Origin: Escherichia phage HY126 | Length of the DNA: 64,000 nucleotides | Sequence record: PP658200.1 | Reading direction: 5' to 3' (one strand) | Translations under genes and position numbers: made by a program | Shown here: piece by piece, positions 2,284 to 27,006 of the stretch | How positions within the stretch are numbered: the first letter of the stretch is position 1 | Layout: every line of letters starts with the position of its first letter | Notes under the pieces: model-generated | Told to the model about the DNA's origin: nothing | Database searches by the model: none | What the model saw: the letters and a program-made list of their open reading frames with translations, nothing else

Positions 2284-3302
2284 ATCTTCGAATAACGAGA
2301 TAATCTCATTTTAGCATGCAACCCACTTGAAATATTCTGTTTCATATATTCTAAAATTTCTTGTGGTGTTGCATTTTCTTTCATTACCATATCATTCACA
2401 TCCTTTGATCTCCATGGAGCTCGATCCCAGAACATGACACGTTCGCCTGCATCAACTAATCGCTTCATGCGAGCTATAGTATCTGGATGCCTAGGTTCAT
2501 TATCCATTACCCATACCCGACGTTCTTTAAATGGTACCACATCTAAATCTATTGAGCCGCCTGTAATAGCGATTGCATTGGGTATGAATAAACTATCAAT
2601 AGGGCCTTCCATTACCCAGACGTCTCCTTCCTTAACACGTTCAACACCATAAATTTTTGTTGCAGACTCAAACGCTTTAATAGTGATATATTTCTGAGGA
2701 GCATCTTTACGAAGTGCACGTCCTTGGAATGACTCGGCCTTCCCGTCTTTATTAAAAATAGGAATCACTAAACGCGGTTCAGGAATCTCTTTCTTATATG
2801 TGCCGGGTTGAATCTTGTTGACCAATTTAGGCCATTCTAATGTGAACCATAATCTGTTCCATGATTCTTTAGGAATGCATCGAGACTTAACATATTTCAC
2901 AATAGGATGCTCTTCAGGCAGCTTGTCCAGACGAGAACAAGACGGCAAAGAATTTATAGTCTTTTTCTCCGGTTCTGGTTTATGTTCAGGAACCTTTTCA
3001 ATCTTTGGTTCCATTCTAGCTTTTTCTTTACGAACTTCCATTAGATATTCGCGATAAAGCTCTTCATCATACTCCTTTAAGTATCCGGAAATTGTATTGT
3101 GGTATTGACAGTTATAGCAATGTACATTACCAGGAGTACCGCCATAATACCAACCGCGAGCTTTCATTGCATCTGTCTGAGAGTCGCCACAAACTGGACA
3201 TCGAAATGTTAATTTAAATGTGCTTGAATTATTGATTTGTCTAAAACGAGGTAGGTGAGAAAACGCACGATAAGCAAATTCATTATCTATCCATTCAGCC
3301 AT
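2280..3302 (-). CDS. 61: DNA primase gp61
   Basis: 340 aa; zinc ribbon CPVCGD...CYNC and Toprim region closely match T4 gp61 as recalled. Confidence 0.95.
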   Translation of the reverse strand: MAEWIDNEFAYRAFSHLPRFRQINNSSTFKLTFRCPVCGDSQTDAMKARGWYYGGTPGNVHCYNCQYHNTISGYLKEYDEELYREYLMEVRKEKARMEPKIEKVPEHKPEPEKKTINSLPSCSRLDKLPEEHPIVKYVKSRCIPKESWNRLWFTLEWPKLVNKIQPGTYKKEIPEPRLVIPIFNKDGKAESFQGRALRKDAPQKYITIKAFESATKIYGVERVKEGDVWVMEGPIDSLFIPNAIAITGGSIDLDVVPFKERRVWVMDNEPRHPDTIARMKRLVDAGERVMFWDRAPWRSKDVNDMVMKENATPQEILEYMKQNISSGLHAKMRLSRYSKI

Positions 3303-3341
3303 AGTATTCTCCAGAGGCCTTAAATTAATAAGGCCATCTTA

Positions 3342-3809
3342 TCACAACTTATTAATATTTACTTTAATTCGCTTTCTTTTCTTGGAAGGAATTTGTTCGG
3401 GACCTTTATTTACGACTGCACCTGTAGTAGTTCCTGATGCAATAGCTTGAGGACTGCCACCTGAATCACCAGCAACCATATCCTCAAATAAAGGGAGTTC
3501 TTTAAATATTTCTTTCTGCTGTTCTTCGGTAATGTTATAGCGTGAAGCTACAGCACTCCAAGCAGACATCATTGAGGCCATTCCATTAAGACCTGGAACA
3601 GTGCTCATCATTCGCTTCATTGAACGAACTGAAGCATGAAAAGGTGTATAAGCCGCTTTCTCTTCGGGAGTAGAAGGACGTTTAAGAACACTTCCACGTT
3701 CATCGATGATTTTGGCTTCGTATGCTTTCCATTCGGTAAAAGGTTTTTGCATTAGTCGAATAAACTTATATGCGTAAACAGAATCTATTGCAGTGTTAAT
3801 AATACCCAT
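3342..3809 (-). CDS. hypothetical protein (T4 61.1 region)
   Basis: Minus ORF; start refined to MGIINTAID with AGGAGG SD; C-terminal basic KKRKRIK tail. Confidence 0.55.
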   Translation of the reverse strand: MGIINTAIDSVYAYKFIRLMQKPFTEWKAYEAKIIDERGSVLKRPSTPEEKAAYTPFHASVRSMKRMMSTVPGLNGMASMMSAWSAVASRYNITEEQQKEIFKELPLFEDMVAGDSGGSPQAIASGTTTGAVVNKGPEQIPSKKRKRIKVNINKL

Positions 3810-6991: not shown

Positions 6992-7016
6992 GGAGACCGA
7001 AGTCTCCTTTTTATTA
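6992..7016 (+). terminator. plus-strand intrinsic terminator
   Basis: AGGAGAC-CGAA-GTCTCCT hairpin followed by TTTTATT on the plus strand; no U-tract on minus strand. Confidence 0.5.
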
Positions 7017-8456
7017 AAATTTTAACTCATTGGCTAAGCTATCTAGGTCAGCACGTGTTGCTTTGGCTTTACCTACGCGTTCCGTACGATTCACCTCTGC
7101 CTGACGCATCTGAGCACCTGCATTTTCATTTACTGTGTTAGATGTGTTCATGCCTTCTTGCTCAATCTCAATCCATTTCTGGTTGCCTTTACGTACACCC
7201 ATCAGGAATTTATTCCACTTATTCTTATCGCCGTATCGTGATTTGATTTGTTTGATAAGTTGTTGTTCAGCTTGTGCAAGTTCTTCGGTTTCAATTACAG
7301 CCAACATGAAATCTGCCGTTGCTGGTAAACCTGCTGATTCTGCGATATCACTCATGTTCATGTCTGAAGCATCCCATGCTGCACGTCCTACTTGAGCTGC
7401 AGTCCATAGAACTGTTTCAGATTCTACTGCTAATGCACGAAGTTCTTCTGCGATAGCTTTAACTAATGTGTAACTATTTTCAGTGTAAACTCTGATACGA
7501 CAAGACCCACAAATACCTAAGTAATCAACCATGATTACAGATGGCACAAAGTTCTTCTTAAGTTTTAACTCATTAAGCAATGCACGAAATGTATTAGCAT
7601 TAGCTCCACCAGTAGGATACTGCTTAACTACTAAACGTCCTAATGTGGATTTTGAACGCCATTTTTCCATCTTGGCTTTATATTCAGCATAAGATACGTT
7701 ACCATCATCGATATCGTCGAGCGATACGTCAAGCATGTTTGCATCTATACGCTTAGCACAAACTTCTTCAGCCATTTCCATAGAAATATAAAGAACATTA
7801 TGACCTGTTTGAAGATAATCTGCAGCAAGTGAACAAAGGCCTAAAGATTTACCAACGTTAACACCAGCCATTAAAACGTTTAGTGTACCTGTTTCAGCAC
7901 CACCTTTAGTGATTTTATTCAAAATGTTTAATTTGAACGGGACCTTACGTGCTTTGTTCAGATAAGAAAGCCAGCGTGCTTCATAGTCTTCCATCCAGTC
8001 ATGCCCAACATAACTATCAAACGAAATTGAAAGTGCTTGACGCATAATATCAGGAATAGCTCCTACGTCAGGCATTTTCTTGTTACGTTGTTCTGGAGGT
8101 AGTTCAGCATTAGACTGAATCTCAATGATTTTGGATGTAGCGTTATACATCGCTTTTTGCTGGACATATTTCTCAGTTTCTTTAACCAACCATTCATGGT
8201 CTTCAGGAGTATCAGCCAATTTTTCAATTAGATCTGAAGTTCCTTTATATTCGGCTTCAGTTAAAGAACTGTTATCTAAAGCCACCTTTAATGCATTGAT
8301 AGATGGCATTGCATTATATTCGTTAACGTGGCTCTTTATAATTTTAAAGACGTTTTTTGCCGGTCCACGCTCAAAATACTCAGAATCCATATAAGGCCAG
8401 ACCTTAGAAAAATAAGCCTGGTCATATACGAGATGAGACAAAATAATTTCTACCAC
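7014..8456 (-). CDS. 41: DNA primase-helicase gp41 (DnaB-like)
   Basis: 480 aa; near-identical to T4 gp41 as recalled (MVEIILSHL..., Walker A GVNVGKS, C-terminal ANELKF); start may be GTG. Confidence 0.95.
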   Translation of the reverse strand: MVEIILSHLVYDQAYFSKVWPYMDSEYFERGPAKNVFKIIKSHVNEYNAMPSINALKVALDNSSLTEAEYKGTSDLIEKLADTPEDHEWLVKETEKYVQQKAMYNATSKIIEIQSNAELPPEQRNKKMPDVGAIPDIMRQALSISFDSYVGHDWMEDYEARWLSYLNKARKVPFKLNILNKITKGGAETGTLNVLMAGVNVGKSLGLCSLAADYLQTGHNVLYISMEMAEEVCAKRIDANMLDVSLDDIDDGNVSYAEYKAKMEKWRSKSTLGRLVVKQYPTGGANANTFRALLNELKLKKNFVPSVIMVDYLGICGSCRIRVYTENSYTLVKAIAEELRALAVESETVLWTAAQVGRAAWDASDMNMSDIAESAGLPATADFMLAVIETEELAQAEQQLIKQIKSRYGDKNKWNKFLMGVRKGNQKWIEIEQEGMNTSNTVNENAGAQMRQAEVNRTERVGKAKATRADLDSLANELKF

Positions 8457-8465
8457 GATAACTCC

Positions 8466-8807
8466 TTAAAAGAATTTAAATTTTTTCTTGGTCCGTTCAT
8501 TAAAAGCTTGTTGTACTTGCATTGTAACACATTTTTCAACATGTGGCGCAAGTTCTGCTTTTCTGTCCTGGTCAAGAACTGCAAAGTCCATTACGATTTT
8601 ACCATCAACCCAGTCTAGTTTTGTAATATAGACTATATGATGGGAACCGTCTTCAAGTGTAATCAGAATCTCTTGAATGACATTTTCCATTGCTGAACGG
8701 ACAATTTTAAGAGATTCATTAAACACTCGTTCTTTGCGAATGTCCTCCCCTTCCAAAGAAGGGGATTCATCAACGATTTCTAGATTTAAATCATCGAGAT
8801 TATTCAT
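8466..8807 (-). CDS. 40: gp40-like head vertex assembly chaperone
   Basis: Position between uvsX and 41 as in T4; ATG at 8805-8807 with GGAAGA SD (track start 8828 is a TTG). Confidence 0.6.
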   Translation of the reverse strand: MNNLDDLNLEIVDESPSLEGEDIRKERVFNESLKIVRSAMENVIQEILITLEDGSHHIVYITKLDWVDGKIVMDFAVLDQDRKAELAPHVEKCVTMQVQQAFNERTKKKFKFF

Positions 8808-9972
8808 CGAAATCTTCCATTTCGTCAAGGTCGTTTTCTATATCTGCTGCAGACGGAGCATCAGAAGTTTTAACCGGAACTTTAGTTGTTGCTTTGCAAT
8901 TAATAAGGTCGTTAACAGCGTCATCAACTTCTTTAATAGAAGAGATAGCACCTAGTTTATATTTAGTTTCAATTGCATCTCGGAAAGGTTTGTGTTTAAA
9001 CAACGGTCCCCAGAATTCTACACAATCAGTAGCTTTAGCACGCCATGATTTTTCTTCACGAATCATTTCGCCTGTTTCTTCGTCAAGGAATTCTCGAGCA
9101 TACCACCCGGCTTTAGGCTTAACTACAAAACCGATTTCAGTTGCCATTTCTAACAAGCCACTGAATGGGTCAATACCGCCATCAAAATTAACCGTGATCG
9201 GGAAAGTAGATTTCTCTTTAACTGTACGAGATTTTTCTGCTTTCAACGTGAAGTCATAACCGGTCAATTCTGTACCTTCTTTAACCTGACGTTTAGAGAT
9301 AAAAAATACCGTGTTGGCAGAATAAAGAATACCTGTACCACCGCCCATAATCTCTTTAGGATATAGTCCGCCGATTTCCATTGCTGTATGGTTAATTGCA
9401 ACACACGGAATATCTTTAATAGTCAGATACGGGGTCACAATACGGAAAAGAGATTTAAGTGCCTTAGCACGAGACATATCACCTACGACTTTCTCGTTCA
9501 ACGCATCTTCGGTTTCTTTCTTAGATGCAGTATTACCGATTGAATCGATAAAGATAATAACTTTATCACCGCGTTCAATCGCGTCAAGCTGATTAGTCAT
9601 ATCAACTTTAAGTTGTTCGACAGATTGAATCGGAGTATGAACTACACGGTCTAAATCAACACCCATTGAACGAAAATAAGATTCTGAAGCACCAAATTCT
9701 GAATCATAGAACAAACAAATTGCATCTTTATATTTCTTCATATATGCTGCAACCATGGTCAGTCCAAACAACGTTTTAAAGTGTTTAGAAGGAGCAGCAA
9801 AAATAGTTAAGCCTGATTGCAACCCAGCATTCAGTGCACCACCTAATGCAATATTCAACATCGGAATACGAGTAGGGACTTCATCGCGATTATTAAACAA
9901 CTTAGACTTAGTCAAGTCTGCAGTCATTTTAGAAGTAGAAGCTTTAATCAGACGAGATTTTAAATCAGACAT
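8800..9972 (-). CDS. uvsX: recombinase UvsX (RecA-like)
   Basis: 390 aa; RecA-fold motifs and overall match to T4 UvsX as recalled. Confidence 0.95.
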   Translation of the reverse strand: MSDLKSRLIKASTSKMTADLTKSKLFNNRDEVPTRIPMLNIALGGALNAGLQSGLTIFAAPSKHFKTLFGLTMVAAYMKKYKDAICLFYDSEFGASESYFRSMGVDLDRVVHTPIQSVEQLKVDMTNQLDAIERGDKVIIFIDSIGNTASKKETEDALNEKVVGDMSRAKALKSLFRIVTPYLTIKDIPCVAINHTAMEIGGLYPKEIMGGGTGILYSANTVFFISKRQVKEGTELTGYDFTLKAEKSRTVKEKSTFPITVNFDGGIDPFSGLLEMATEIGFVVKPKAGWYAREFLDEETGEMIREEKSWRAKATDCVEFWGPLFKHKPFRDAIETKYKLGAISSIKEVDDAVNDLINCKATTKVPVKTSDAPSAADIENDLDEMEDFDE

Positions 9973-10071: not shown

Positions 10072-10620
10072 TTAACGAGCCCATTTGATAATTTCTGTAA
10101 TCAAATTATTACGTTCGCTTGCATTAAATCCTATAACTTTGTTAGCACCATCATGATTAAGTAATTGATACGTTTGGATTTCGTTATGAATTGCAAACTC
10201 TTCAAAATATGAAATGACTGTATTAAAACCGAACGAAGACAAAGTAATAAGGTCGTCTTCAAAACTTTCAGTCATTTCGTTACGTGTTAAAATAATTGTG
10301 AACACATCATGGTTTTGGCAAAGACGAACATAATCCTGTTCATAAACGTCAAGAACCGAGTCCGCATCTTGTCGAATACGTCCATAAACCCAGTTACTAA
10401 TATATCCACGGTCTAACAGATAAATCTTAGTAGGGTCTAAATAATTCAACATCGTTTCGAAACAGCCAACTTCATTTCGAGACTTAACATCGAAACGTCC
10501 ATCAACTGTTCGTTTAGGGAAATCAATCTTTACATATCTTTCACTAATTTCCATTATGTCATTAATGAAAGTTGTTTTACCAGCATTATCCGGGCCATCT
10601 ACTAAAATAATTTTAGCCAT
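10072..10620 (-). CDS. P-loop nucleoside/nucleotide kinase-like protein
   Basis: 182 aa; Walker A VDGPDNAGKTT and LLDRGYISNWVYG (DRxY lid-like) suggest dNK/dTMP-kinase fold; not present at this position in T4. Confidence 0.7.
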   Translation of the reverse strand: MAKIILVDGPDNAGKTTFINDIMEISERYVKIDFPKRTVDGRFDVKSRNEVGCFETMLNYLDPTKIYLLDRGYISNWVYGRIRQDADSVLDVYEQDYVRLCQNHDVFTIILTRNEMTESFEDDLITLSSFGFNTVISYFEEFAIHNEIQTYQLLNHDGANKVIGFNASERNNLITEIIKWAR

Positions 10621-10621
10621 T

Positions 10622-11521
10622 TTATTCCTCGATTACGACATCTTCATATTTAGGTATATTATACGGCGAAGAAATTAAAGCATTAAAGTAGATGAACTCG
10701 CCAAGACCTGGATGGAATACTTCTTCAGGATTTTCGAAATATTGAATCTTCGGACGTCCTTTAAGAATTTGATAGTACTCAGTTTTAGTTGGTTTAAAAA
10801 TTCGAATCAACGCTTCTTCAGGATACTTATTTCTGTCGAAGCTATTATTTGGATCGGTTATATAAAGCGGTTGGCCTAATTGAATTGCACATTCAACCAC
10901 TTGTTCAAAACGATAGCACGGGTCACTAATTCGAAATGGATGAAAAATACCATCTAGATGAATAGGAGCCAAATCACCTACAAGACGCTGCATGATGGAA
11001 GGACGTATAACTTTCTGCGTTACGATAATCTTATTACCATCTGCACCTGCGTTAACCAGCACTTCTTTTTGACGTTCATTCAACACAGTAGTTTGAAGTG
11101 AACGATTAACCGACAACATATCAGTTTTTAAGAATTCGTCAATATAAAAACGTGGTTTATTAGGGTCTGCAGTGATATTGAAATTGAATTCCACATCAAA
11201 AGTGCCGGCATATCCGGTGATATCTGTGATTAGAAAATCACAATCATAATAAGCAATTAATGAATCAACCACAAATTCATTTTCAGACCAGAAATATTTA
11301 CGAGTGTTATACGCGTTATCTTTATACCATAATGGAACAAACTTAAATTCTGGAAAAAGACGTTCGCATTCTTTAATATCAGATGCATTACGTGGATATG
11401 TAATCACATCACCCGGATTAGCACGGTGCAAATGAAGTTGGAAGTTGCCATCCTTAAGGATAGCATACTGTCCAGTTTCATAAGACCGCATACTCAAGAT
11501 AGGTACGCGGAAAATAGCCAT
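10622..11521 (-). CDS. hypothetical protein in the beta-glucosyltransferase syntenic position
   Basis: 299 aa between uvsX and 42, where T4 carries beta-gt; no resemblance to T4 beta-gt noticed; ATGA-coupled to gene 42. Confidence 0.65.
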   Translation of the reverse strand: MAIFRVPILSMRSYETGQYAILKDGNFQLHLHRANPGDVITYPRNASDIKECERLFPEFKFVPLWYKDNAYNTRKYFWSENEFVVDSLIAYYDCDFLITDITGYAGTFDVEFNFNITADPNKPRFYIDEFLKTDMLSVNRSLQTTVLNERQKEVLVNAGADGNKIIVTQKVIRPSIMQRLVGDLAPIHLDGIFHPFRISDPCYRFEQVVECAIQLGQPLYITDPNNSFDRNKYPEEALIRIFKPTKTEYYQILKGRPKIQYFENPEEVFHPGLGEFIYFNALISSPYNIPKYEDVVIEE

Positions 11522-12237
11522 TAGTCAAGGAATCCTTTAACATAATCAAAATCACGTTCAAACACATGGGCACTTACCATGGTATGAGTATAATCACCAA
11601 CTTCTACACCACATTCGTTAGCGATATAATGAAGTAATTTTCCTTGGAGATAAAAATCCAACTGCATAACAACAGCACAGTTCTGAGAACGCATATGACA
11701 GTGGGTATAAAGCTTACCATCACGAATATAATAAGTCACTGAGTCAGTACATGGATATTCAAGCGTTTCGTCTGAATCAAGCAAAGCCTGATCGGAACTT
11801 TCTAGAATTTGGAACACAACTCTTCGGGAGTTAGGCTTCTCTTTAAGTTCTTTTAGAAGAGCTGGTAATTGGGCCGCAATGCGAGGACCATAGAAAGTGT
11901 TGAAGTTTGCAGGCAAAGCGTCTGATTTAGGTTTAGAAATAAATTTAGCGACGTTAGGATATGCCTTAAATGCTTCTTTTGCATCAGTACCACCAGAAAT
12001 CATAAATTTCCAGAAATCTTCAGCATATTCATAAGAGATGCGATTAATACGTGGGTCGGTCATTTTGAATGATGAAGGGGTATCAACAACTACTGTCATA
12101 GACCCAATTTCATTACAACGTCCAATACGAGAATCAGTAACGAACTGTGGATTTTCTAAAATTTCACGATTGACAGCTTTAAATGCGGATTGAAAATCTG
12201 CGGCTTTAATATATTTCATTGTGTTATGTTTTCCCAT
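11521..12237 (-). CDS. 42: dCMP hydroxymethylase gp42 (thymidylate-synthase fold)
   Basis: 238 aa; TS-family core (…RRVVFQIL…PCTDSVTYYIRDGKL…MRSQN…QLDFY…); synteny with T4 gene 42. Confidence 0.85.
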   Translation of the reverse strand: MGKHNTMKYIKAADFQSAFKAVNREILENPQFVTDSRIGRCNEIGSMTVVVDTPSSFKMTDPRINRISYEYAEDFWKFMISGGTDAKEAFKAYPNVAKFISKPKSDALPANFNTFYGPRIAAQLPALLKELKEKPNSRRVVFQILESSDQALLDSDETLEYPCTDSVTYYIRDGKLYTHCHMRSQNCAVVMQLDFYLQGKLLHYIANECGVEVGDYTHTMVSAHVFERDFDYVKGFLD

Positions 12238-12516: not shown

Positions 12517-13677
12517 TCATTCTGGGTACCTCAAAGCGTCGTCAGAGTTAGTTATATCAATAATAGATATAGAGTTTTCTGATAACCCATTTTTAGATAA
12601 TTGACGTTTATAATATCTTTCACAATATGTACACGTCGTCCCACAGATTTCATTAGCACAATCGAAATCTGGATGTCTGAACCACCTTTTTTCTAAAAAG
12701 CCATCTAACAAAGAGGTTTCAATATTTACCGTATGTGAAAACTCGGTCTCATTTTCAAGAGTGAAAATGGTCTCTAAAGGCTTCCACAATTCCAACAAAT
12801 TACCTTCAAATTTTTCGGAAGCATAAGCTTCAAGAACTTTCAAAATGTAGTCTGTGCTACCTGTACGTCCTGAAACTTTGAATTGAGTGATACCAATATC
12901 ATTATAAAGTTTCAAATCTTGAGGACGAACAAAACGAGTTCTCAACCAGTTAAATGGATCTGTATCACGAGCTTTAATGCAGTGTTGCATTGGATATCCA
13001 TTTAAGGATTTAGCATCATCAGCGGTAACATCAGTACTATGGAAAATATAGCAAGAGTCACGATAGCTACAATGTGTTGTATACCCTTTACCAGCATTAG
13101 AACAGAACTCATTTACAAGAACTTCAAATATTATATTGTTCTTATTGCAAAACTCTGCTGCACGCTTCAGGAAAGAAACCGAACGGTTCTTATGAATTCC
13201 ACAGCAGACCTTTTTGATATTATACTGGTCATGCAAGTATTTGATTTGAGTTACAGCATCGACATGTAGAATTGTTGAAACTTCAATCTCAATGTCTTTA
13301 TTGACTTCACGAACAATTTCCATAACAACAGGGTTAGCGATAGTAATACGCCATACGCCTATTGACCAAAGATACTGAACATAATCCTGAATAGCTTTCT
13401 TCTTCCACTCAACTAGTTCTCTTTTTGAACCAGGATTTATCGTGTTGAGTGTATAGTTAAAGCAAATACCTAATTCGTTACAACGTTTAACGTAATCTTC
13501 TAACATCTTTTTGTCAACGTCAGGAAGCCTAAAATCAGGTCTGGCTGCTACAAAAGCCATTTCTCTTGTAGAGCCGTATACTTCATTTATCAAGCTATTA
13601 GGATAAGTTTTATTGAGCTCTACGATTTTATCAAGAAGAGCTAAATCAAAATTCGTTCCGATTTTAAAAGTATTCAT
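12517..13677 (-). CDS. peptidase-U32-family-like protein (TIM-barrel, Cys-rich; possible Fe-S enzyme)
   Basis: 386 aa; N-terminal …EVYGSTREMAFVAAR… and …EVLVNEFCSNAG…C… resemble U32 signature regions; many C-terminal Cys; assignment from motif memory only. Confidence 0.65.
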   Translation of the reverse strand: MNTFKIGTNFDLALLDKIVELNKTYPNSLINEVYGSTREMAFVAARPDFRLPDVDKKMLEDYVKRCNELGICFNYTLNTINPGSKRELVEWKKKAIQDYVQYLWSIGVWRITIANPVVMEIVREVNKDIEIEVSTILHVDAVTQIKYLHDQYNIKKVCCGIHKNRSVSFLKRAAEFCNKNNIIFEVLVNEFCSNAGKGYTTHCSYRDSCYIFHSTDVTADDAKSLNGYPMQHCIKARDTDPFNWLRTRFVRPQDLKLYNDIGITQFKVSGRTGSTDYILKVLEAYASEKFEGNLLELWKPLETIFTLENETEFSHTVNIETSLLDGFLEKRWFRHPDFDCANEICGTTCTYCERYYKRQLSKNGLSENSISIIDITNSDDALRYPE

Positions 13678-13731: not shown

Positions 13732-14133
13732 TTATAGATTCGGTTTATATGATTTAAATGTTTCGAATTCGCCTTTATTCATAAGAGCTTTGAATTCGTC
13801 AGGACGCATAGCTTTGTCGTCGATAATCCAATCATATACTGGTTTATGTGTTAGCAAATTATGGTACTTCAAGCCAATGTTTGCCAAGTTCTGAATCAGA
13901 CTTGGGAGAATGTCAATTGCTATACGACCAGGACCTACTGACTTCATACCGCGAGCAGTGTAAAGCGTTATTGTATGCCCTGCATCATACAGGGCATTAA
14001 TGGCAGACACCATTTCGACGTCTGGTTTGAAGTTCACGTAATCACGATTGTTATTCCACTCGGTTATACAATCATCGACATCAAAACAAAGATTAAGCAT
14101 GTTTTCTACACGGTGCATTAGATTCGTTCCCAT
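13732..14133 (-). CDS. HAD-superfamily phosphatase (minimal, capless)
   Basis: 133 aa; motif I FDVDDCIT, conserved T (TLYTARG), K, and motif IV IIDDKA. Confidence 0.65.
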   Translation of the reverse strand: MGTNLMHRVENMLNLCFDVDDCITEWNNNRDYVNFKPDVEMVSAINALYDAGHTITLYTARGMKSVGPGRIAIDILPSLIQNLANIGLKYHNLLTHKPVYDWIIDDKAMRPDEFKALMNKGEFETFKSYKPNL

Positions 14134-15806
14134 TGATGAGTGATATCGCCACCGATTGGACGATAGGAAACACCAGTTTCTTTATCAGTTAGTACCCATT
14201 TACCAGGATTTTTTGTAATCAGAGTAGCCGTTACAGGTTCTGCTACGTCATAACTAATAGAGCCGTCCTGAAGTACACGGCCCATGTTACGTAATTGCTT
14301 AGTCAGAAGTTCCATACCTTTATAATATGCGGCTACCGCTTTAAGTGGATTATTCTTGAAATAACCACCTAATGCAATCCAGATAATTGCCACTGCCAAA
14401 TGATGATACTCGTTAAACGAACTCATCTTTCCATATTTGTAAACTAATGGATTGATGTTAATAGACACATTACAAGTTGTTTCATCAATAGTAAACTGTC
14501 CCCAAGTCGGATTAGCGTTGAATTCATCATAACCTGAAACAGCGTAAAGCACTTTAGCTTCATCATACAATTTTGGCCCATAAATCTTGGTTTCACCAAA
14601 ATATCCACGAGGGTCGATAAACTTGACTTCACAATTATCAGTAATCATAGTATTACTGAAGTTCGGGTCGCCATGAATAACAGAGTACTGTCCCTGAGAA
14701 CGGTTATGATAACGAATAAGGTGTTCTAAAGCTTGTTTCAACATTGGCTTCAGACGCCCAATCTTAGTGTAGTTCACATGTGTTATTTTACCAAATGAAT
14801 CAATCAATGGTTGAATACTTTCACAACGATCAATAACTTTAGTATAGAATTCTTTAGTGAAATCACGACGAACAGTTTCAGGACTTACAAAATAAGTGTC
14901 TGTGCTGAATTTCAGTGCATCTAAAATTGCATCAACAATTTGTGGACGAGCAAGACTTGATTTGGATTTAATATATTCAAATGCTGGCTTACCTTTAATA
15001 CGTTCCATAATAAAGTGGCCGCCAGGATGATAACTTACAATCCGTGGAACTGAATCTGATTTAACTTTCTTATACCAATTGACTTCATCTTTTTGAAGTG
15101 CAACGCCCTGTTCTGTTAAAGCAATCTTTGTTACCGTTTCTTCGCCAATTTCAACTGCATTAAAACTACGATTAAGTTCACGAACTTCATGAGCTTTTTC
15201 AAGTTTAGGCATATCACCAAGGTCGATGATATTCATAAGCTCTGATTTATTGAATGCGCTGCCGTAAAGGAATTCTACGAAATCACGTCCTTTGCAGTAT
15301 TCATGAATTTCCTCATCAGTAGAACCCATATAGAATTCCCAGTCTTTGAACTGATAAATTCCTACAACATTACCACCTGTTGAACCTACATTAGTGATAT
15401 TTTCACCGTCGAAATTATATCGACATTCGTCACCCTTAACATAGATTGCGTTAACATTCCAAGACCACGAACCAAAATCAGGAATAATATCACACCAGTT
15501 AACAATTACATTATGGCCGTCTAAATCTTTGTGCAATTTAGCAAGAGCATAAGCAGAACCATACGCTTCATCAACTGTACGAATAGTCACATTGAACCCT
15601 TCTTGCTCACAATAAGCTCGAACAGTTTCAGCAAATTTTGAATGAACTACTACAATAATTTCATCTGCGCCAAGGTCAGAATAAATTGTATACAAATTGC
15701 TCAGAATAGTGTCTTGTTTATAGTTAACAAGCACCTTAGGAATATGATGCGTTATTGGATACAAACGAGTTGCCAGTCCAGCACCAAGAATAACAGCTTT
15801 TTTCAT
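14118..15806 (-). CDS. bifunctional sugar-1-phosphate nucleotidyltransferase / APH-like sugar kinase
   Basis: 562 aa; N-terminus ILGAGLATRLYPIT..PKVLV (NDP-sugar pyrophosphorylase signature); C-terminus HGDPNFSN…FIDPRG (aminoglycoside/choline-kinase-like catalytic loop). Confidence 0.75.
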   Translation of the reverse strand: MKKAVILGAGLATRLYPITHHIPKVLVNYKQDTILSNLYTIYSDLGADEIIVVVHSKFAETVRAYCEQEGFNVTIRTVDEAYGSAYALAKLHKDLDGHNVIVNWCDIIPDFGSWSWNVNAIYVKGDECRYNFDGENITNVGSTGGNVVGIYQFKDWEFYMGSTDEEIHEYCKGRDFVEFLYGSAFNKSELMNIIDLGDMPKLEKAHEVRELNRSFNAVEIGEETVTKIALTEQGVALQKDEVNWYKKVKSDSVPRIVSYHPGGHFIMERIKGKPAFEYIKSKSSLARPQIVDAILDALKFSTDTYFVSPETVRRDFTKEFYTKVIDRCESIQPLIDSFGKITHVNYTKIGRLKPMLKQALEHLIRYHNRSQGQYSVIHGDPNFSNTMITDNCEVKFIDPRGYFGETKIYGPKLYDEAKVLYAVSGYDEFNANPTWGQFTIDETTCNVSININPLVYKYGKMSSFNEYHHLAVAIIWIALGGYFKNNPLKAVAAYYKGMELLTKQLRNMGRVLQDGSISYDVAEPVTATLITKNPGKWVLTDKETGVSYRPIGGDITHQWERI

Positions 15807-15847: not shown

Positions 15848-15991
15848 CTAGTTAAAGCATTCATACTTTGCTTGTAGTCCAATCATAATCCATCCGATTA
15901 TAAGAGTCGGAATCATTACTGGAGCCGTTAAGCTCCAGTAGATAGTCATGACAAGCATCAATAGTAAAAGTCCTATTGTTATTGCTTTCAT
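15848..15991 (-). CDS. small hydrophobic membrane protein (47 aa, below track cutoff)
   Basis: Translated by eye (MKAITIGLLLLMLVMTIYWSLTAPVMIPTLIIGWIMIGLQAKYECFN); ATGA overlap with stop of SIS isomerase gene. Confidence 0.35.
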   Translation of the reverse strand: MKAITIGLLLLMLVMTIYWSLTAPVMIPTLIIGWIMIGLQAKYECFN

Positions 15992-16623
15992 TGTTCGCCT
16001 CGTAACATGGCACCTAGTGCACCGCCAGGGTGGAACTTAAGGAAGTCATTAGAGGTAAATCCACGTTCAGACGAAAGGTTGATAGCAAACGTATCGATAA
16101 GCGCTAACAACAATGTAGTGGACATAGTCGGAGCCAGAGAATTCTCATCAACCTCTACTGCGATGCCTGTACAGAACGTATAATCAAAAAGAGCTTCGTA
16201 TTCTTGTGGAATGTCCGGGTTACAATGCAACAGAATCTGTTTGACGTTCGGACGAATCATTTTAAGATGCTTAGCCACGCCTATCATTTCTTCAGTTTTA
16301 CCAGAACGACTAATATGAATCAACACATCATTAGGCGCAATGAATCCTGCATCACCGTGAGAATAATGCCCAGTGTTCAAGTACATACTCGGGATACCGA
16401 GTGAAGCAAATGTCTCAGAAGCTTTAGTTGCAATATTAGCATTCTTACCAACACCTGTAATAATTACTCGGCTTTCATAATTACTAAGTCCTGGGCGTCG
16501 AAGAGTTTCTAGAATAGCATTATAACGAGCAGGGTTTTGACTAATTACTTTGGCCATAGCGGCCAAAGAAGAAGCTTGTTTTATGATTGCGTCAATAGCG
16601 ATAGTAATAGGAGTAGTTTTCAT
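15988..16623 (-). CDS. SIS-domain sugar-phosphate isomerase, KdsD/GutQ-like (arabinose-5-phosphate isomerase)
   Basis: 211 aa; GVGKNANIATKASETFASLGIPS, ISRSGKTEE, LAPTMSTT and FHPGGALG match the SIS domain of A5P isomerases; no CBS domains. Confidence 0.8.
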   Translation of the reverse strand: MKTTPITIAIDAIIKQASSLAAMAKVISQNPARYNAILETLRRPGLSNYESRVIITGVGKNANIATKASETFASLGIPSMYLNTGHYSHGDAGFIAPNDVLIHISRSGKTEEMIGVAKHLKMIRPNVKQILLHCNPDIPQEYEALFDYTFCTGIAVEVDENSLAPTMSTTLLLALIDTFAINLSSERGFTSNDFLKFHPGGALGAMLRGEQ

Positions 16624-16663: not shown

Positions 16664-19375
16664 TCAAAAATCGAACATATCGAACAGAGATGCTTTCTTC
16701 TCATAATCGAGTTTCGCTGCTGATGTGAATCCTTCAAGTGGTTTAATAAATGTCTTCTCAAGGAGAACAGTGTAGTCCATCCAGTGAAGTACATCGTCTT
16801 TAATTAAATCTGTGATTTCAGTACCAGAAGGCCATGCGATACATTTATCACCGAATGGGTTTCCTTCACGTAAAGGCAGAACATATACTTTTTCACCTTC
16901 TACAACTTGCGGTGCATCGATATTACCTTTGATAGCACGGTTATACGTCAGAATTCCACGAATATGGAACGGGCATTTGGGACCAGGGAATCCACCTACA
17001 TCATATTTAGCAATGTTATTCGCAGAAGATACCGACGCGATGCTAATATAATTCAATTGACGGAATTCTTTTTCAAACTCTTTAAAATATTCTTGTAATG
17101 ATTCTTCACCTTCTTGAAGCATACGACGAATACATTCTTTAAGAGCTTTCTGTACTGCTTTAGGAGTCGAAGATTTCTGAGTCTCTAGACCCATGATTTT
17201 GAGTTTAGGCTCAGCGTAACGAGTACCTTCCATATCCCACACGTTTAATGCATAACGTTTCTTACCAGTCCAGAATCCACCAATACCTTTAGAACCGAGT
17301 GGAGGCCCAGCGATAGCTTCTCGGTCCATGAACATTAAGTGTTGTTTATTGTTCATGTATTCACACATTTCACGGAAACCTCTATCAATAGCTGGTTCCA
17401 TACGTTCACGTGCAAACTTATCTAAGAAGTCTACCCAATGGTTGGTATCACGGAATTTAGATTCACCAACCTTATCGATAATTTTATCAGCAGATACGTA
17501 AATAGAGTCTGTATCACCATAAAGAACGAAAGCTTCACCTTCTGTACCACAAACTTCATTCAGATATTCATTAACTTTACGTTCAATCCACTGTAAAGCC
17601 ATTTGCCCGAATGTTGTGATTGCAGTAGCATTACGCAAATCATAATAACGGAACCAAACGTTGCCAAGTGCACCATAAAGCGAGTTGATGAGCAATTTAC
17701 GGTTAATTTGGGCAGTCATACCTGCAACTTCAGTACGTTGAGCTCTAAACAACATTTCATTAAGAGATTTAGCAGACAACTTTTTAATCTTTTCTTTAAT
17801 CTCATCGCTGAAGTCGAAACGATAATCAACATCTAATGGTTCGTCAACAGAAAGATTAGGATTATGCAATGCCTCTTTAATTATTTCACCATTACGTTGA
17901 GCTGCAAGCATGTAACCTTTATGTTCTTTACGTTGATTAAAGACCTTAGTGATTTCAGTTGGAACTACACCATCACGGTCTTTATAATACATCATGCCGT
18001 TAGGAGAACAACTGTACACATCAGAAGGACGTTCAGCAACAGCGTTAATATAATCATGCAATGGAGCTACTTTAAACGTTCCTGCTATTGTTTCTGGGCT
18101 AATATTCACTTGGCGAATAATACTTGGATACAGAGATGTGAGGTCGAAGCTCATCACATATTTGTATCGATTTGGAATAGGTTCCTTAACAAAAGCACCA
18201 GGATAAGGTTGAACCGGATGAGAACGACCTTGTGGAATCACCTTGTTCTGCTCTTTAAGGCTATTAAAAATAATAGCATCCCATGTTTTAATTGGGCTAA
18301 ACACGGATTGAATCTGTATCTTAGCATAATAACCCATGTCCAAACTCAAGTTGATGAACTGACGCTTAGCATCAATTTGCAATACACGATACACGTCGAT
18401 AATGTTATAAGAAATATATCGTTGGTGATTGCTTTCACGAAGCTTAGAAATAGGGCCGTCATATTTCAGTTTACCAACGTTCAATTCAAATTCTGAAATG
18501 TAATCCAGAGAATACGACGGTTGATTGGTAAAAGAGAATTTTTTGTAAAGGTCAATGTAATCAAGAACAGAGATACCGAACAGTGTAATGATTTCACGAG
18601 AACCATACATGTTTTCGATAACTTTAACACGAGTTTTACGATGTGGTGATAAACGTTTCGCAGTAGATTCGCCAAAAATATTCTTGATTCGGTTATACAC
18701 ATATGGAATATCAAATGACTCAACGTTCCATCCAGTCAAAATGACAGGAGTTTTCTGTTGCCAGAAGTTGAGATATTCCATCAACAATTCTTTTTCGTTA
18801 TCGAACGGCATATAAATGATTTTATCGATAATTTCGGATGGAACTTCATCACCACCTTGTTCTTGAAGCTTAGCTGCAATTTCGATAGACCATTCTTCCA
18901 CATTACCATATGGAGAATTCAATAGATCAAATACGTAGAACCTGTCGTCAATTGAGTCATAATGAGTGATAGCATCAATAGGATGTTTTGCTTGTGACGG
19001 CTCAGGGAACCCATCCGGAGATGTTACTTCGATGTCGAAGTTAGCCACACGAATTTTTGTATGGTCGTATTTGATTTCATAGTTATAAGTGTCAGACAAA
19101 TACGCCAATTTGAAATCGTCCATGCCAAGTGCTTCAAGTCCGATATCTTCCATGCGTTTAATCCATTGTGAGGCATCACGCATATTAGCGAACAACTTAC
19201 GAGTACACGGCTTACCGTAGATATCGAAATATTTCGTAGCCTGACTTTCCGGACAATGAGCAAACAGTGATGGTTTATATTCTACTTCACGAGTACGTTC
19301 ACGGCCGTTAGAATCGATGTAACGTTCAAAAATTGAATCACCAATCTGTTCAACCGTTAAGTAAAATTCTTTCAT
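16664..19375 (-). CDS. 43: DNA polymerase gp43 (family B)
   Basis: 903 aa; sequence recognised as RB69-type gp43 (MKEFYLTVEQIGDSIFERYIDSNGRERTREVEYKPSLFAHCPESQ…; exo motifs, YGDTDS). Confidence 0.97.
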   Translation of the reverse strand: MKEFYLTVEQIGDSIFERYIDSNGRERTREVEYKPSLFAHCPESQATKYFDIYGKPCTRKLFANMRDASQWIKRMEDIGLEALGMDDFKLAYLSDTYNYEIKYDHTKIRVANFDIEVTSPDGFPEPSQAKHPIDAITHYDSIDDRFYVFDLLNSPYGNVEEWSIEIAAKLQEQGGDEVPSEIIDKIIYMPFDNEKELLMEYLNFWQQKTPVILTGWNVESFDIPYVYNRIKNIFGESTAKRLSPHRKTRVKVIENMYGSREIITLFGISVLDYIDLYKKFSFTNQPSYSLDYISEFELNVGKLKYDGPISKLRESNHQRYISYNIIDVYRVLQIDAKRQFINLSLDMGYYAKIQIQSVFSPIKTWDAIIFNSLKEQNKVIPQGRSHPVQPYPGAFVKEPIPNRYKYVMSFDLTSLYPSIIRQVNISPETIAGTFKVAPLHDYINAVAERPSDVYSCSPNGMMYYKDRDGVVPTEITKVFNQRKEHKGYMLAAQRNGEIIKEALHNPNLSVDEPLDVDYRFDFSDEIKEKIKKLSAKSLNEMLFRAQRTEVAGMTAQINRKLLINSLYGALGNVWFRYYDLRNATAITTFGQMALQWIERKVNEYLNEVCGTEGEAFVLYGDTDSIYVSADKIIDKVGESKFRDTNHWVDFLDKFARERMEPAIDRGFREMCEYMNNKQHLMFMDREAIAGPPLGSKGIGGFWTGKKRYALNVWDMEGTRYAEPKLKIMGLETQKSSTPKAVQKALKECIRRMLQEGEESLQEYFKEFEKEFRQLNYISIASVSSANNIAKYDVGGFPGPKCPFHIRGILTYNRAIKGNIDAPQVVEGEKVYVLPLREGNPFGDKCIAWPSGTEITDLIKDDVLHWMDYTVLLEKTFIKPLEGFTSAAKLDYEKKASLFDMFDF

Positions 19376-24769: not shown

Positions 24770-24998
24770 TACACGCTTCAGCCATTTTAAGAATAGAGCC
24801 AGGAGTATCGTTGTCCATTATATTAAAGCTAAATTCAATAGCCCAGTCGGTGCAGACATGAACTGCTTTAACTTCATTACCTTCAACGCGTAATGGCTCA
24901 ATCCAATACTTGATAGTGTTCTCGAATCCATCACCATCTTTAACGTCTATTTCAGCTTCAAGCCCGAGCCCAGCATTGTTAAATTCATCTAAAGTCAT
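24741..24998 (-). CDS. hypothetical acidic protein (85 aa)
   Basis: Minus ORF, coupled to gene 47 stop. Confidence 0.5.
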   Translation of the reverse strand: MTLDEFNNAGLGLEAEIDVKDGDGFENTIKYWIEPLRVEGNEVKAVHVCTDWAIEFSFNIMDNDTPGSILKMAEACIEDAYNDED

Positions 24999-26014
24999 TG
25001 TGTTGCCTCAATATAAAGTTCGTTAGAATATTTGACCAGCGCTTCTCTGTCTTCGTCTGAGATATCTGGAATCGCGTCAATATATTCTTTAATGATATCT
25101 TGAAGTGATTTAATCTCGATTTCCTGGTCGTCATCAGATTCAACACTGTTATCAACTTTAGAAACCATACGAAGAGAGTGTACTACTTTTTCAAGTTCAG
25201 ATTCAAACTTAGTCAACTCTGAATCAATTTCTGATACTATAACACGTAAGGCTAGATTAGTATAATCAGAATAATTGATTTTGCCTTTAAATGGATAAGT
25301 GATTCGTCGATGCCATGTTGTTTCATTAGGAATAAATTCCATACGTTCAACATCAGTGTCAAATACCCAGAATCCGCGCGGGTCGTTCTCATCGCCTGCA
25401 GTAAGTGTCCATGGTGTCCCAATATATTTGACGTTAGCAGCTTCAGAGATTGTGTGGAAGTGGCCGGACCAGACTTGTTTATAGGTCTTTAAGAAATCAG
25501 GTTCAAGCCCATGAGACTTCATTCCTTTATAGAAATAAAAGCCGTTCAGTTCCCAGTGCCCAACACAATACGCTGCGGAAGAAGTCTTGATGTGCTCTAA
25601 GATTTCACCTGTATTTTCTTCACACATCCATGGAACGATATCAATCAGACATCCGTCAAAATCTACAGTAGTTGGATGCTCGTAAATAGTAAAGTTTTCA
25701 AATTGAGTTAACAATTCAGAAACAGTGTTAGGTGTTATTGTATTCTTAAACGCCATGTCATGGTTTCCTATCGTGACATGAACGTGAATGCCTGCTTTAG
25801 AAATCATATCAACAATTTCACGATTGAATTCCATTGTACGATGTGTTATTGCTTTACGGACGTCAAACCAATCACCGTACTGAATCCAAGTTTTAATCCC
25901 GTGTTTCTTAGAGTATTCAATTGCTTGACGAATACCATCACGTTGAATATCTTGAACCCATGGGTCGTCTTGTTTGACTCCGATATGGAAGTCGCCTAAG
26001 TGCAAAATTTTCAT
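24995..26014 (-). CDS. 47: recombination nuclease subunit gp47 (SbcD/Mre11-like)
   Basis: 339 aa; calcineurin-like phosphoesterase motifs (LHLGDFH, GNHD, GHWE, GHFH). Confidence 0.95.
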   Translation of the reverse strand: MKILHLGDFHIGVKQDDPWVQDIQRDGIRQAIEYSKKHGIKTWIQYGDWFDVRKAITHRTMEFNREIVDMISKAGIHVHVTIGNHDMAFKNTITPNTVSELLTQFENFTIYEHPTTVDFDGCLIDIVPWMCEENTGEILEHIKTSSAAYCVGHWELNGFYFYKGMKSHGLEPDFLKTYKQVWSGHFHTISEAANVKYIGTPWTLTAGDENDPRGFWVFDTDVERMEFIPNETTWHRRITYPFKGKINYSDYTNLALRVIVSEIDSELTKFESELEKVVHSLRMVSKVDNSVESDDDQEIEIKSLQDIIKEYIDAIPDISDEDREALVKYSNELYIEATQ

Positions 26015-26063: not shown

Positions 26064-26085
26064 AAAAGGAACTCCGAAGAGTTCC
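26061..26085 (-). terminator. intrinsic terminator
   Basis: Minus strand GGAACUC-UUCG-GAGUUCC hairpin followed by U7; overlaps stop of the small upstream ORF. Confidence 0.7.
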
Positions 26086-26258
26086 TATCCACATAGTACA
26101 CCGTACAGAGGCTCATTTGAACTTTTAAATCGAATGGGCTTGTATGTAATAGTTCCTTCGGCTTTAGCTTTATCATAAGACTCTTTAAAACGTCTCATTC
26201 TTTCTGCTTTGCCTTTACGGATTTTATCGAAATTTTCAGAGGTCAGGTCGTTCGTCAT
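26085..26258 (-). CDS. small basic protein (57 aa, below track cutoff)
   Basis: Translated by eye (MTNDLTSENFDKIRKGKAERMRRFKESYDKAKAEG…); GAGGTG SD; ends at terminator. Confidence 0.35.
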   Translation of the reverse strand: MTNDLTSENFDKIRKGKAERMRRFKESYDKAKAEGTITYKPIRFKSSNEPLYGVLCG

Positions 26259-26297
26259 GCATAATCACCTCTCAGAAAATACCTAAATCGATTTCTC

Positions 26298-26519
26298 TCA
26301 TCGTTTCCACCATTTCTTAACTTGAAATGAATCAACCCACACGAGTTGTTTTGGGTCTGCCTTTACAATAGGCGGACAAATTTCTGTAATAGAACCGTCG
26401 TGATATTCCTTTTCGGAAATTTTAACACAAAGAGGACCTCCCAATTTAAGGGTGAACCCTGCGTTCAGCTTCAGACGTTTAAACTTTGTTTGAACTAGCG
26501 CCATTAATGATGTCCTCAA
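26298..26519 (-). CDS. hypothetical protein (73 aa)
   Basis: Minus ORF in region where T4 carries alpha-gt; no GT-size ORF present. Confidence 0.45.
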   Translation of the reverse strand: MRTSLMALVQTKFKRLKLNAGFTLKLGGPLCVKISEKEYHDGSITEICPPIVKADPKQLVWVDSFQVKKWWKR

Positions 26520-26802
26520 TAGCCTGACGAGTAGTAACCCACTGGATTTTAATTAACTTGTCATTATATGGTTGTCGTAGAATATCCCGAGATTTCTTAA
26601 TAGCATATTCGTAAGCTTCGAAGTTGTTTTGAATTGCTGCTTCTTGAGCATGAGCATAAAGACGGTTTAGCTCAAAACGATTCTTTTTAAGAATCTTTTC
26701 GGATTTTTTACGTGCTTCAGCTTCATTTTTCTTTTGGATTTCTTGTAGCATTTTAGCTACTGCATCTTCTGCTTCTTTATTTTCAATAATCTCGGTAGTC
26801 AT
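26479..26802 (-). CDS. hypothetical protein (107 aa)
   Basis: Minus ORF; overlaps neighbour by about 40 nt so start or stop context uncertain. Confidence 0.5.
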   Translation of the reverse strand: MTTEIIENKEAEDAVAKMLQEIQKKNEAEARKKSEKILKKNRFELNRLYAHAQEAAIQNNFEAYEYAIKKSRDILRQPYNDKLIKIQWVTTRQAIEDIINGASSNKV

Positions 26803-26803
26803 A

Positions 26804-27006
26804 TTATCTCATTAAATTAAAATAAAAACGTCCATCCTCTTCAATACAGAACTCATACTCAACCGGAGTCCCATTTATCGAAAATGACACGTCATGTGGG
26901 TTCAAAGGGTCGATGTCAAAATTAATTTTAAATTCACGACCCAACAGTTTTACCAAATAAGGGATTGCTTCGTCAAAAGGTTCTTCTAAGTAGTTAGAGA
27001 TGTCAA
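26804..27006 (-). CDS. hypothetical protein (about 67 aa)
   Basis: Start refined to ATG that overlaps gene 55 stop (ATGA). Confidence 0.45.

Follow-up and report, generated by a model that had tools for sequence, protein, structure and literature searches.

A predicted GT-B-fold protein and its thymidylate kinase-like partner at the uvsX locus of Escherichia phage HY126, probable components of a 5-hydroxycytosine arabinosylation pathway

Introduction

On the map of bacteriophage T4, uvsX is separated from gene 42 by segA and by the β-glucosyltransferase gene, b-gt. What occupies this interval in Escherichia phage HY126, and what its products might do to the phage DNA, was examined in a 64,000-nucleotide stretch of that phage (sequence record PP658200.1; hereafter the window, to which coordinates refer unless another record is named). 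An earlier note on this DNA had placed two open reading frames (ORFs) between uvsX and a supposed gene 42, encoding a protein of 299 amino acids (aa) and a P-loop kinase; both were found again here, the kinase, of 182 aa, with the motifs DGPDNAGKTT and LDRGYISN. The note had treated the locus as unknown, although its counterpart in phage RB69 was described in 2018 and in 2025-2026. The locus is in fact the already published arabinosyl-5-hydroxycytosine cluster, RB69 gp45-gp55 (Lee et al., NAR 2026, PMC13326640). The gist of the note was right, and the locus it singled out is real but known to the literature. We consider it probable that these genes serve the arabinosylation of 5-hydroxycytosine, with the 299-aa protein (GT1) as the first transferase and the 182-aa protein as a nucleotide kinase. 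To the published picture the present analysis adds a conserved GT1-kinase unit with its gene fusions, a conflict with the pyrophosphorylase function assigned to the GT1 orthologue of phage Thanatos, and the distribution pattern of a U32-family protein.

Arabinosyl-5-hydroxycytosine shields phages from restriction enzymes, from the Brig1 DNA glycosylase and from type I CRISPR-Cas (PMC13216743, PMC13326640). The genus Mosigvirus, to which RB69 belongs, supplies common candidates for phage therapy.

Results and Discussion

Relationship to the RB69 cluster

Over a 6.1-kb region around the two genes, nucleotide identity is 97-98% to more than 150 Mosigvirus (RB69-group) phages of Escherichia and Shigella, and the window, judged by its sequence, comes from an RB69-like Mosigvirus of the T-even type. 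At the protein level the kinase is 98.9% identical to RB69 ORF045c, the neighbouring thymidylate synthase (ThyA) homologue 98.7% to ORF048c, and a U32-family protein further along 99.7% to ORF050c. GT1 corresponds to two RB69 products, ORF047c (residues 1-181; 97.8% identity) and ORF046c (residues 184-299; 100%), which a single additional T, at position 545 of the gene, splits apart in the RB69 record (AY303349.1, 24597-25497), while the HY126 ORF is intact. This independently confirms the published view that genes 46 and 47 make up one ORF split by a sequencing error (PMC13326640). The RB69 gp46:47/gp45 and DLP3 gp79/gp78 pairs are thus direct orthologues of GT1 and its kinase (98-100% identity for RB69; 46% for DLP3, over 100% of the GT1 length), and in both phages, as in HY126, the genes for a ThyA-type hydroxylase, the transferase and the kinase stand in the same order beside uvsX. 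There is no difference of substance between the three loci, and the activity of the orthologues, named 'arabinosyltransferase 1' (gp46:47) and 'nucleotide kinase' (gp45) in PMC13326640, is likewise predicted.

The gene taken for gene 42 decides which base is at issue. Its 238-aa product is 100% identical to PDB entries 9iqc and 9ir2 (all 238 residues) and 9iqu (234 residues) and 69% identical to DLP3 gp80, with 24.8% identity to T4 gp42. The aligned motif reads RSQN...QLD, against RSCD...PFN in ThyA of E. coli MG1655 and RSND...RND in T4 gp42, so that the protein carries the D169N signature together with the cytosine-specifying Asp at N177 (E. coli numbering). An Asn at position 169 of E. coli ThyA marks RB69 gp48 as a flavin-binding, O2-dependent synthase of 5-hydroxy-deoxycytidine monophosphate (5-hydroxy-dCMP, 5hodCMP), a synthesis demonstrated experimentally for both RB69 gp48 and DLP3 gp80 (PMC13326640). 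By sequence, then, the flanking gene is predicted to encode a 5-hydroxy-dCMP synthase and no dCMP hydroxymethylase, and the label 'gene 42' has to be given up. The same applies to 5-hydroxymethylcytosine (hmC), which the earlier note had taken as the acceptor: virion DNA of the RB69 group carries arabinosyl-5-hydroxycytosine (PMC13326640, PMC13390438). The base is 5-hydroxycytosine bearing one or two ether-linked arabinofuranoses, not hmC (PMC13326640), and the same mono- and di-arabinosylated bases occur in another Mosigvirus, from the Durham collection (PMC13390438). As the acceptor base is 5-hydroxycytosine, the transfer assay on hmC-DNA that had been proposed would use the wrong substrate.

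Predicted fold of the 299-aa protein

GT1 falls in PHROG 3891 (E 6e-156, residues 1-298) and has no match in Pfam, NCBIfam or, by phmmer, the PDB. A Pfam scan of 43 diverse homologues found no glycosyltransferase family, Glycos_transf_1 and Glyco_trans_4 included; the family profile found no glycosyltransferase among PDB sequences; and its alignment by hhalign with DLP3 gp77 and with T4 a-gt gave probabilities below 1%.

The structure prediction was more telling. An AlphaFold2 model built on the alignment of the 43 sequences (predicted local distance difference test score, pLDDT, 94.4; predicted template modelling score, pTM, 0.88) has two Rossmann-like domains with a cleft between them, and its first Foldseek match is MshA (3c4q). 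The top fold matches (3c4q, 6kih) are the same as those published for RB69 gp46:47 (PMC13326640). Overall the best structural matches are retaining GT-B enzymes of the GT4 type (MshA, PimA, BshA and sucrose-phosphate synthase), with 245-266 of the 299 residues aligned. The family-invariant residues R197, K246 and H270-P271-G272 and the conserved E275 lie after strands 1, 3 and 4 of the C-terminal domain, at positions which we take to be the nucleotide-sugar site of GT-B enzymes. In GT1 itself an E267-x7-E275 motif stands at the expected place, and E275 is present in the majority of the family; unlike GT4-type enzymes, the family thus half-keeps the E-x7-E motif, and its 43 members lack a match to Pfam Glycos_transf_1 or Glyco_trans_4. 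On the strength of the model, GT1 is predicted to be a stripped-down GT-B (GT4-like) glycosyltransferase fold. The earlier suggestion that it was a candidate transferase is therefore borne out at the level of the fold, through AlphaFold2 and Foldseek; of the two kinds of search that the note had proposed, sequence profiles gave no glycosyltransferase match and the structure search matched the GT-B fold.

Many UDP-N-acetylglucosamine (UDP-GlcNAc) 2-epimerases also appeared in the Foldseek output (E 3e-6 to 1e-4), and arabinose is the C2 epimer of ribose, so that GT1 could be envisaged as a UDP-sugar 2-epimerase-like member of the GT-B superfamily which, for example, interconverts ribo and arabino forms at C2 of the donor. 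The template modelling (TM) scores of these epimerases are lower, however (0.47-0.52 versus 0.61-0.64), the published route to UDP-arabinofuranose needs no such enzyme (PMC13326640), and the first sugar needs a transferase, for which no other candidate is conserved across these phages. We thus give the epimerase function very little credence and retain the transferase.

GT1 and the kinase form a conserved unit

The genes for the ThyA homologue, GT1 and the kinase are tightly packed in the window. The ThyA stop and the GT1 start overlap as TAATG. The GT1 stop and the kinase ATG are one base apart, and the 3' end of the GT1 gene contains a Shine-Dalgarno sequence, GAGGA. Twelve loci outside the RB69 group were inspected, comprising DLP3, two Thanatos phages, six metagenome contigs (one of 356 kb, others non-T-even and myovirus-like) and three fusion loci (L018-L020). 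GT1 and the kinase are adjacent in all 12 and fused in three; in eight of the nine unfused loci their ORFs overlap by 4-22 nucleotides, and in the ninth (L008) the kinase comes first and shares one base with GT1. GT1 lies next to a ThyA homologue and a thymidylate kinase (Tmk)-like protein in HY126 as well as in DLP3, the two Thanatos phages and the six metagenome contigs, and all seven of the GT1-adjacent ThyA homologues that were aligned (DLP3 and the six contigs) have D169N.

The family is small: an exhaustive search of 1.84 billion representative proteins with the GT1 profile yielded only 225 clusters (E <= 1e-3). Of 261 GT1-domain proteins, 16 have an additional domain of 140 residues or more, which is a P-loop kinase in eight and HAD-like in the other eight. 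The kinase is C-terminal in seven of the fusions (P0255, P0258, P0261, P0271, P0283, P0286, P0245) and N-terminal in one (P0266). The fused P-loop domain is homologous to the HY126 kinase family (hhalign probability 92%, E 6.5e-7, 133 columns), and it also gave matches to Pfam Thymidylate_kin below threshold. The relationship was visible in profile-profile comparison only; the long GT1 homologues had no match (E <= 1e-3) to a hidden Markov model of the T-even-type kinase. The fused kinases have a Walker A motif of the form GFDRIGKD(T/S), in which the Asp after the Lys is unusual. The HAD-like domain (155-190 residues, DFDGIF...GDD) is N-terminal in P0166, P0175, P0176, P0178, P0193, P0205, P0229 and P0252; its matches to Pfam Hydrolase were below threshold, and hhalign detected no relation to the HAD phosphatase of HY126 (probability 0.3%).

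Fusion of GT1 and kinase in both orders is strong evidence, at the sequence level, that the two would share a pathway step or a complex, while it does not by itself identify the substrate. Comparable two-domain synthase/phosphatase systems are the sucrose-phosphate synthase-phosphatase and OtsA-OtsB, where a GT-B transferase is likewise fused or adjacent to a phosphate-handling enzyme of the same pathway. Unlike the OtsA-OtsB type, the partners of GT1 are a nucleoside monophosphate (NMP)-type kinase or a HAD domain, and there is no sign of a phosphorylated small-molecule acceptor. The adjacency and fusion evidence is new here, being absent from the RB69-pathway literature consulted, which did not include He et al. 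2026 and Mahler et al. 2025.

The 182-aa protein is related to thymidylate kinases

The seven best fold matches of the 182-aa protein are all thymidylate kinases, with which it has the Tmk fold, the P-loop and the DR-aromatic motif in common; this agrees with the published matches of its orthologue (PMC13326640). Pfam PF02223 gave no match to it at E <= 0.1, and the matches of its distant homologues to PF02223 were faint or below threshold. The genomic context suggests a modified dCMP, and not deoxythymidine monophosphate (dTMP), as the substrate; like the T4 gp1 deoxynucleoside monophosphate (dNMP) kinase, the 182-aa protein would pass a modified pyrimidine nucleotide on for use in DNA.

The earlier note had described this protein as dTMP kinase-like, which holds, and had also proposed that it might phosphorylate a sugar intermediate instead of a nucleotide, a role for which its position next to the sugar-activation cassette could be cited. 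This second role is most improbable, because the best folds are those of thymidylate kinases, with the P-loop and DR-Y motifs in place, and because the pathway has its sugar kinase in the 562-aa protein of the cassette, as an APH-like C-terminal domain. Furthermore, the 182-aa family stays with GT1 and a hydroxylase where no cassette is nearby. A nucleotide kinase thus remains the preferred assignment.

The cassette itself was recognised early: Thomas et al. 2018 reported arabinose in RB69 DNA and proposed ORF003c as an arabinosyltransferase, with ORF053_052c and ORF055c making UDP-arabinose (PMC6024577). In the later work the HAD phosphatase (RB69 gp51) acts as an arabinose-1,5-bisphosphate 5-phosphatase, the 562-aa protein (gp52:53) as a bifunctional sugar kinase and uridylyltransferase, and AfhE of HY126 is reported to be a UDP-arabinose pyrophosphorylase (PMC13326640). 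The expectation that the neighbouring genes make a nucleoside diphosphate sugar is thus well founded, the isomerase, the kinase/uridylyltransferase and the phosphatase all being present and the roles of their orthologues being on record. In two metagenome contigs, L006 and L007, the 6 kb around GT1 contain no arabinose cassette, and the sugar may therefore differ there.

Proposed pathway and the points against it

Taken together, these genes would act as follows. The ThyA homologue would hydroxylate dCMP at C5, as shown for its near-identical RB69 orthologue, and ribulose-5-phosphate would be turned into UDP-arabinofuranose by the isomerase, the kinase/uridylyltransferase and the HAD phosphatase, according to the roles given to their orthologues in the literature. 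GT1 would place the first, base-proximal arabinose on the 5-hydroxyl, as its fold, orthology, synteny and phyletic pattern suggest. The 182-aa kinase would most probably convert a modified dCMP, either 5-hydroxy-dCMP or its arabinoside, to the diphosphate, by which the modified nucleotide would reach DNA. A larger GT-B enzyme of the RB69 ORF003c type, encoded outside the window, would supply the second arabinose, and arabinoses after the first would be added on DNA, as shown for near-identical orthologues. That the first sugar, too, is added after replication is the default view.

Several points weigh against this scheme. As seen above, the GT1 family has no sequence-level tie to any glycosyltransferase family, and the first Glu (E267) of its E-x7-E motif is not conserved in the family. 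No transfer activity has been published for it in the literature covered, to which He et al. 2026 and Mahler et al. 2025 did not belong. The substrate of the 182-aa kinase is uncertain, as RB69 already has a gp1-type dNMP kinase, gp159, that converts 5hodCMP to 5-hydroxy-dCDP (PMC13326640). Finally, the His-tagged orthologue of Thanatos, TH1_063 (300 aa), gave UDP-xylose from UTP and xylose-1-phosphate (PMC12838424).

The last of these underlies the claim that TH1_063, and by extension the 299-aa protein, is a UDP-pentose pyrophosphorylase and not a transferase. Synteny identifies TH1_063 (Thanatos-1, L017:5460-6362) as the orthologue of GT1, to which the copy in Thanatos-2 (L016:5534-6436) is 47.5% identical. 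Besides forming UDP-xylose, TH1_063 gave no transfer to DNA, dCMP, dCTP or cytosine (PMC12838424). None of these acceptors had a 5-hydroxyl, however, which renders the negative transfer result uninformative, and the assay as described (PMC12838424) had a no-enzyme control only, so that a co-purified E. coli uridylyltransferase is a possible source of the product. Furthermore, the fold of GT1 is GT-B and not that of a nucleotidyltransferase; the genuine NTP-transferase domain of the locus lies in the 562-aa protein, in keeping with the UDP-arabinose pyrophosphorylase activity reported for AfhE (PMC13326640); and GT1 is kept in L006 and L007, where no sugar cassette lies within 6 kb. Thus, in contrast to the activity assigned to its Thanatos orthologue, it is very unlikely that GT1 functions as a pyrophosphorylase, and it is retained here as the probable first transferase. 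In the Thanatos locus a neighbouring 561-aa protein has a true nucleotidyltransferase domain; PMC12838424 treats the nucleotidyltransferase-kinase TH1_060 as a candidate transferase.

When the first arabinose is added

A further possibility concerns not what GT1 does but when. Glycosylation could precede polymerisation, with GT1 acting on free 5-hydroxy-dCMP, the kinase on arabinosyl-5-hydroxy-dCMP, and the polymerase inserting an already glycosylated base. GT1 stands between or beside mononucleotide enzymes, namely a ThyA-type hydroxylase and an NMP kinase, even where no cassette is near (L006, L007); the ORFs of GT1 and kinase overlap; and eight proteins fuse the two. A gp1-type kinase already takes 5hodCMP, and a second, strictly conserved NMP kinase suggests another substrate. 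DLP3 gp79 alone was moreover inactive on DNA containing 5-hydroxycytosine (5hoC-DNA), and its authors could not tell a mononucleotide from DNA as the acceptor of the first arabinose (PMC13326640).

Against this, 5-hydroxydeoxycytidine readily enters DNA when the hydroxylase and the gp1-type kinase are expressed (PMC13326640), and in phages which lack a gp1-type kinase the Tmk-like enzyme could be a plain 5hodCMP kinase. Adjacency and fusion indicate functional linkage and not the identity of a substrate. Net charge and isoelectric point do not discriminate either: the GT1 family has a median isoelectric point of 5.1, and T4 alpha-gt, which acts on DNA, one of 6.1; that of DLP3 gp77 is 5.7. To our knowledge, all phage DNA glycosylations characterised so far take place after replication. 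On balance we regard a pre-polymerisation route as unlikely, and the same measure of doubt attaches to the stricter proposal that GT1 and the kinase form one obligate two-enzyme unit or complex which arabinosylates 5-hydroxy-dCMP ahead of polymerisation. Were it true, it would account for the inactivity of the isolated transferase on 5hoC-DNA and, as we know of no earlier glycosyl DNA hypermodification made before replication, would be the first of its kind. The coupling of GT1 to the kinase and the misfit of the pyrophosphorylase assignment in any case offer concrete hypotheses for the failed reconstitution in vitro.

Distribution of the first and second transferases

By tblastn, GT1 occurs in 348 phage records (Escherichia 176, Acinetobacter 57, Klebsiella 26, Shigella 15, Serratia 14, and others) and the kinase in 343, with the same genus counts and hence near-identical phyletic profiles. 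The ORF003c-type transferase is less widespread, being found in 211 records (Escherichia 136, Acinetobacter 55, Shigella 13), among which there are none from the GT1-bearing Klebsiella, Serratia, Yersinia and Proteus phages. Thanatos, a Shewanella phage with a GT1 orthologue, is described as mono-arabinosylated with a single arabinosyltransferase (PMC13326640). The two distributions and the Thanatos pattern fit a scheme in which GT1 adds the first sugar and ORF003c the second, with GT1, as far as the sequence records indicate, the universal transferase of the pathway. The absence of the ORF003c type predicts mono-arabinosylated DNA in the Klebsiella, Serratia, Yersinia and Proteus phages. A second arabinosyltransferase of the ORF003c type was also sought inside the window and rejected as absent; in close relatives the gene lies about 21 kb from the kinase (ORF003c at RB69 2520-3620).

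Absence of the T4-type glucosyltransferases and gene layout

The genes of the locus are listed in Table 1.

Table 1. Features at and near the arabinosylation locus in the HY126 window
Feature	Position	Strand	Profile matches
gp41 helicase	7014-8456	minus	
uvsX	8800-9972	minus	
182-aa P-loop kinase, thymidylate-kinase fold; orthologue of RB69 gp45, DLP3 gp78	10072-10620	minus	
299-aa predicted compact GT-B-fold glycosyltransferase 'GT1'; orthologue of RB69 gp46:47, DLP3 gp79, Thanatos TH1_063	10622-11521	minus	
238-aa thymidylate-synthase (ThyA) homologue; predicted flavin-dependent dCMP 5-hydroxylase (5hodCMP synthase)	11521-12237	minus	
386-aa U32-family protein, RB69 gp50	12517-13677	minus	Pfam PF01136, E 7e-11
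133-aa HAD phosphatase, RB69 gp51, AfhF-like	13732-14133	minus	NCBIfam TIGR01689, E 4e-13; PHROG 1238
562-aa sugar-1-phosphate uridylyltransferase and APH-like sugar kinase, RB69 gp52:53, AfhE-like	14118-15806	minus	Pfam NTP_transferase, E 1e-9; weak APH/EcKL matches; PHROG 4098
211-aa arabinose-5-phosphate isomerase, RB69 gp55	15988-16623	minus	Pfam SIS; NCBIfam KpsF/GutQ, E 2e-32; NCBIfam KdsD, E 1e-30
DNA polymerase	16664-19375	minus	
alpha-gt locus, lacking alpha-gt itself; homologues of T4 a-gt.2, a-gt.3, a-gt.4, a-gt.5 (four small ORFs)	26085-27097	minus	

Between its genes 47 and 55, T4 encodes 47.1, a-gt, mobB and a-gt.2 to a-gt.5. In HY126 the corresponding locus, bounded by gene 47 (24995-26014) and gene 55 (27003-27560), lacks only a-gt, 47.1 and mobB; its four small ORFs are 75, 71, 58 and 47% identical to T4 a-gt.2, a-gt.3, a-gt.4 and a-gt.5, respectively (tblastn, E 4e-23 to 1e-14). 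The retention of these homologues where a-gt itself is gone indicates that the small genes are not tied to glucosylation. Neither b-gt nor a-gt of T4 has a homologue in all 64 kb (tblastn; best E 4.1 and 0.029, respectively), and a canonical glucosyltransferase elsewhere in the window, considered as an alternative, was likewise rejected, none being found. Thus the ORF list and tblastn agree with the earlier note that b-gt has been replaced and that the alpha-gt locus holds four small ORFs only, and its conclusion that HY126 does not glucosylate hmC in the T4 manner stands for the window.

GT1 and the T4 enzymes differ in other respects too. GT1 has no detectable sequence similarity to the T4 beta- or alpha-glucosyltransferase and is 50-100 residues shorter; its acceptor here would be 5-hydroxycytosine (giving an aryl ether) and its sugar arabinofuranose, where the T4 enzymes use hydroxymethylcytosine and glucose; and, unlike the T4 glucosyltransferases, it has a constant partner kinase.

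A candidate second hydroxylase

The U32-family protein encoded beyond the ThyA homologue was labelled 'sugar or heterocycle reductase' and not discussed further in PMC13326640. Ten of its cysteines are invariant, among them a C-x4-C-x3-C-x2-C cluster. In E. coli the same family includes RlhA, annotated in RefSeq as the synthase of 5-hydroxycytidine C2501 in 23S rRNA, as well as TrhP, UbiU and UbiV, and these cellular enzymes are oxygen-independent hydroxylases. Pairwise comparison of the phage protein with RlhA, TrhP, UbiU and UbiV gave nothing significant, and its tie to the cellular family runs through the Pfam profile and a weak UbiU match only.

Among phages the protein is very strongly conserved, the 221 records that carry it being at least 82% identical and none of them from an Acinetobacter phage; it is absent from all 57 GT1-bearing records from phages of Acinetobacter, a strictly aerobic genus, and from about 40 of the 176 Escherichia ones. 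The ORF003c type and the U32 gene have equal counts in Escherichia phages, 136 each. Homologues of 47-49% identity (E 1e-105 to 1e-115) lie within 1-3 kb of the fused GT1-kinase gene in L018 (10053-11153), L019 (12301-13401) and L020 (10179-11276), where no ThyA homologue was found in the roughly 13 kb available (best E 0.19; the contigs are incomplete). The ThyA-type enzyme occurs without a U32 protein in DLP3 and contigs L004-L009, and the Mosigviruses and Thanatos have both, so that the GT1-kinase unit is accompanied by at least one candidate hydroxylase in every locus examined. On this small sample with its incomplete contigs, the U32 protein may provide an oxygen-independent route to 5-hydroxycytosine, which, if true, could account for cytosine hydroxylation by a gut phage in the absence of oxygen.

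A Flavodoxin_2 gene lies directly upstream of the D169N ThyA homologue in the non-T-even contigs L006 (4739-5293) and L007 (4715-5275), and in the 356-kb contig L004 another (1-523) lies about 6 kb upstream of the ThyA homologue; its product could be a flavin reductase partner of the flavin-dependent hydroxylase.

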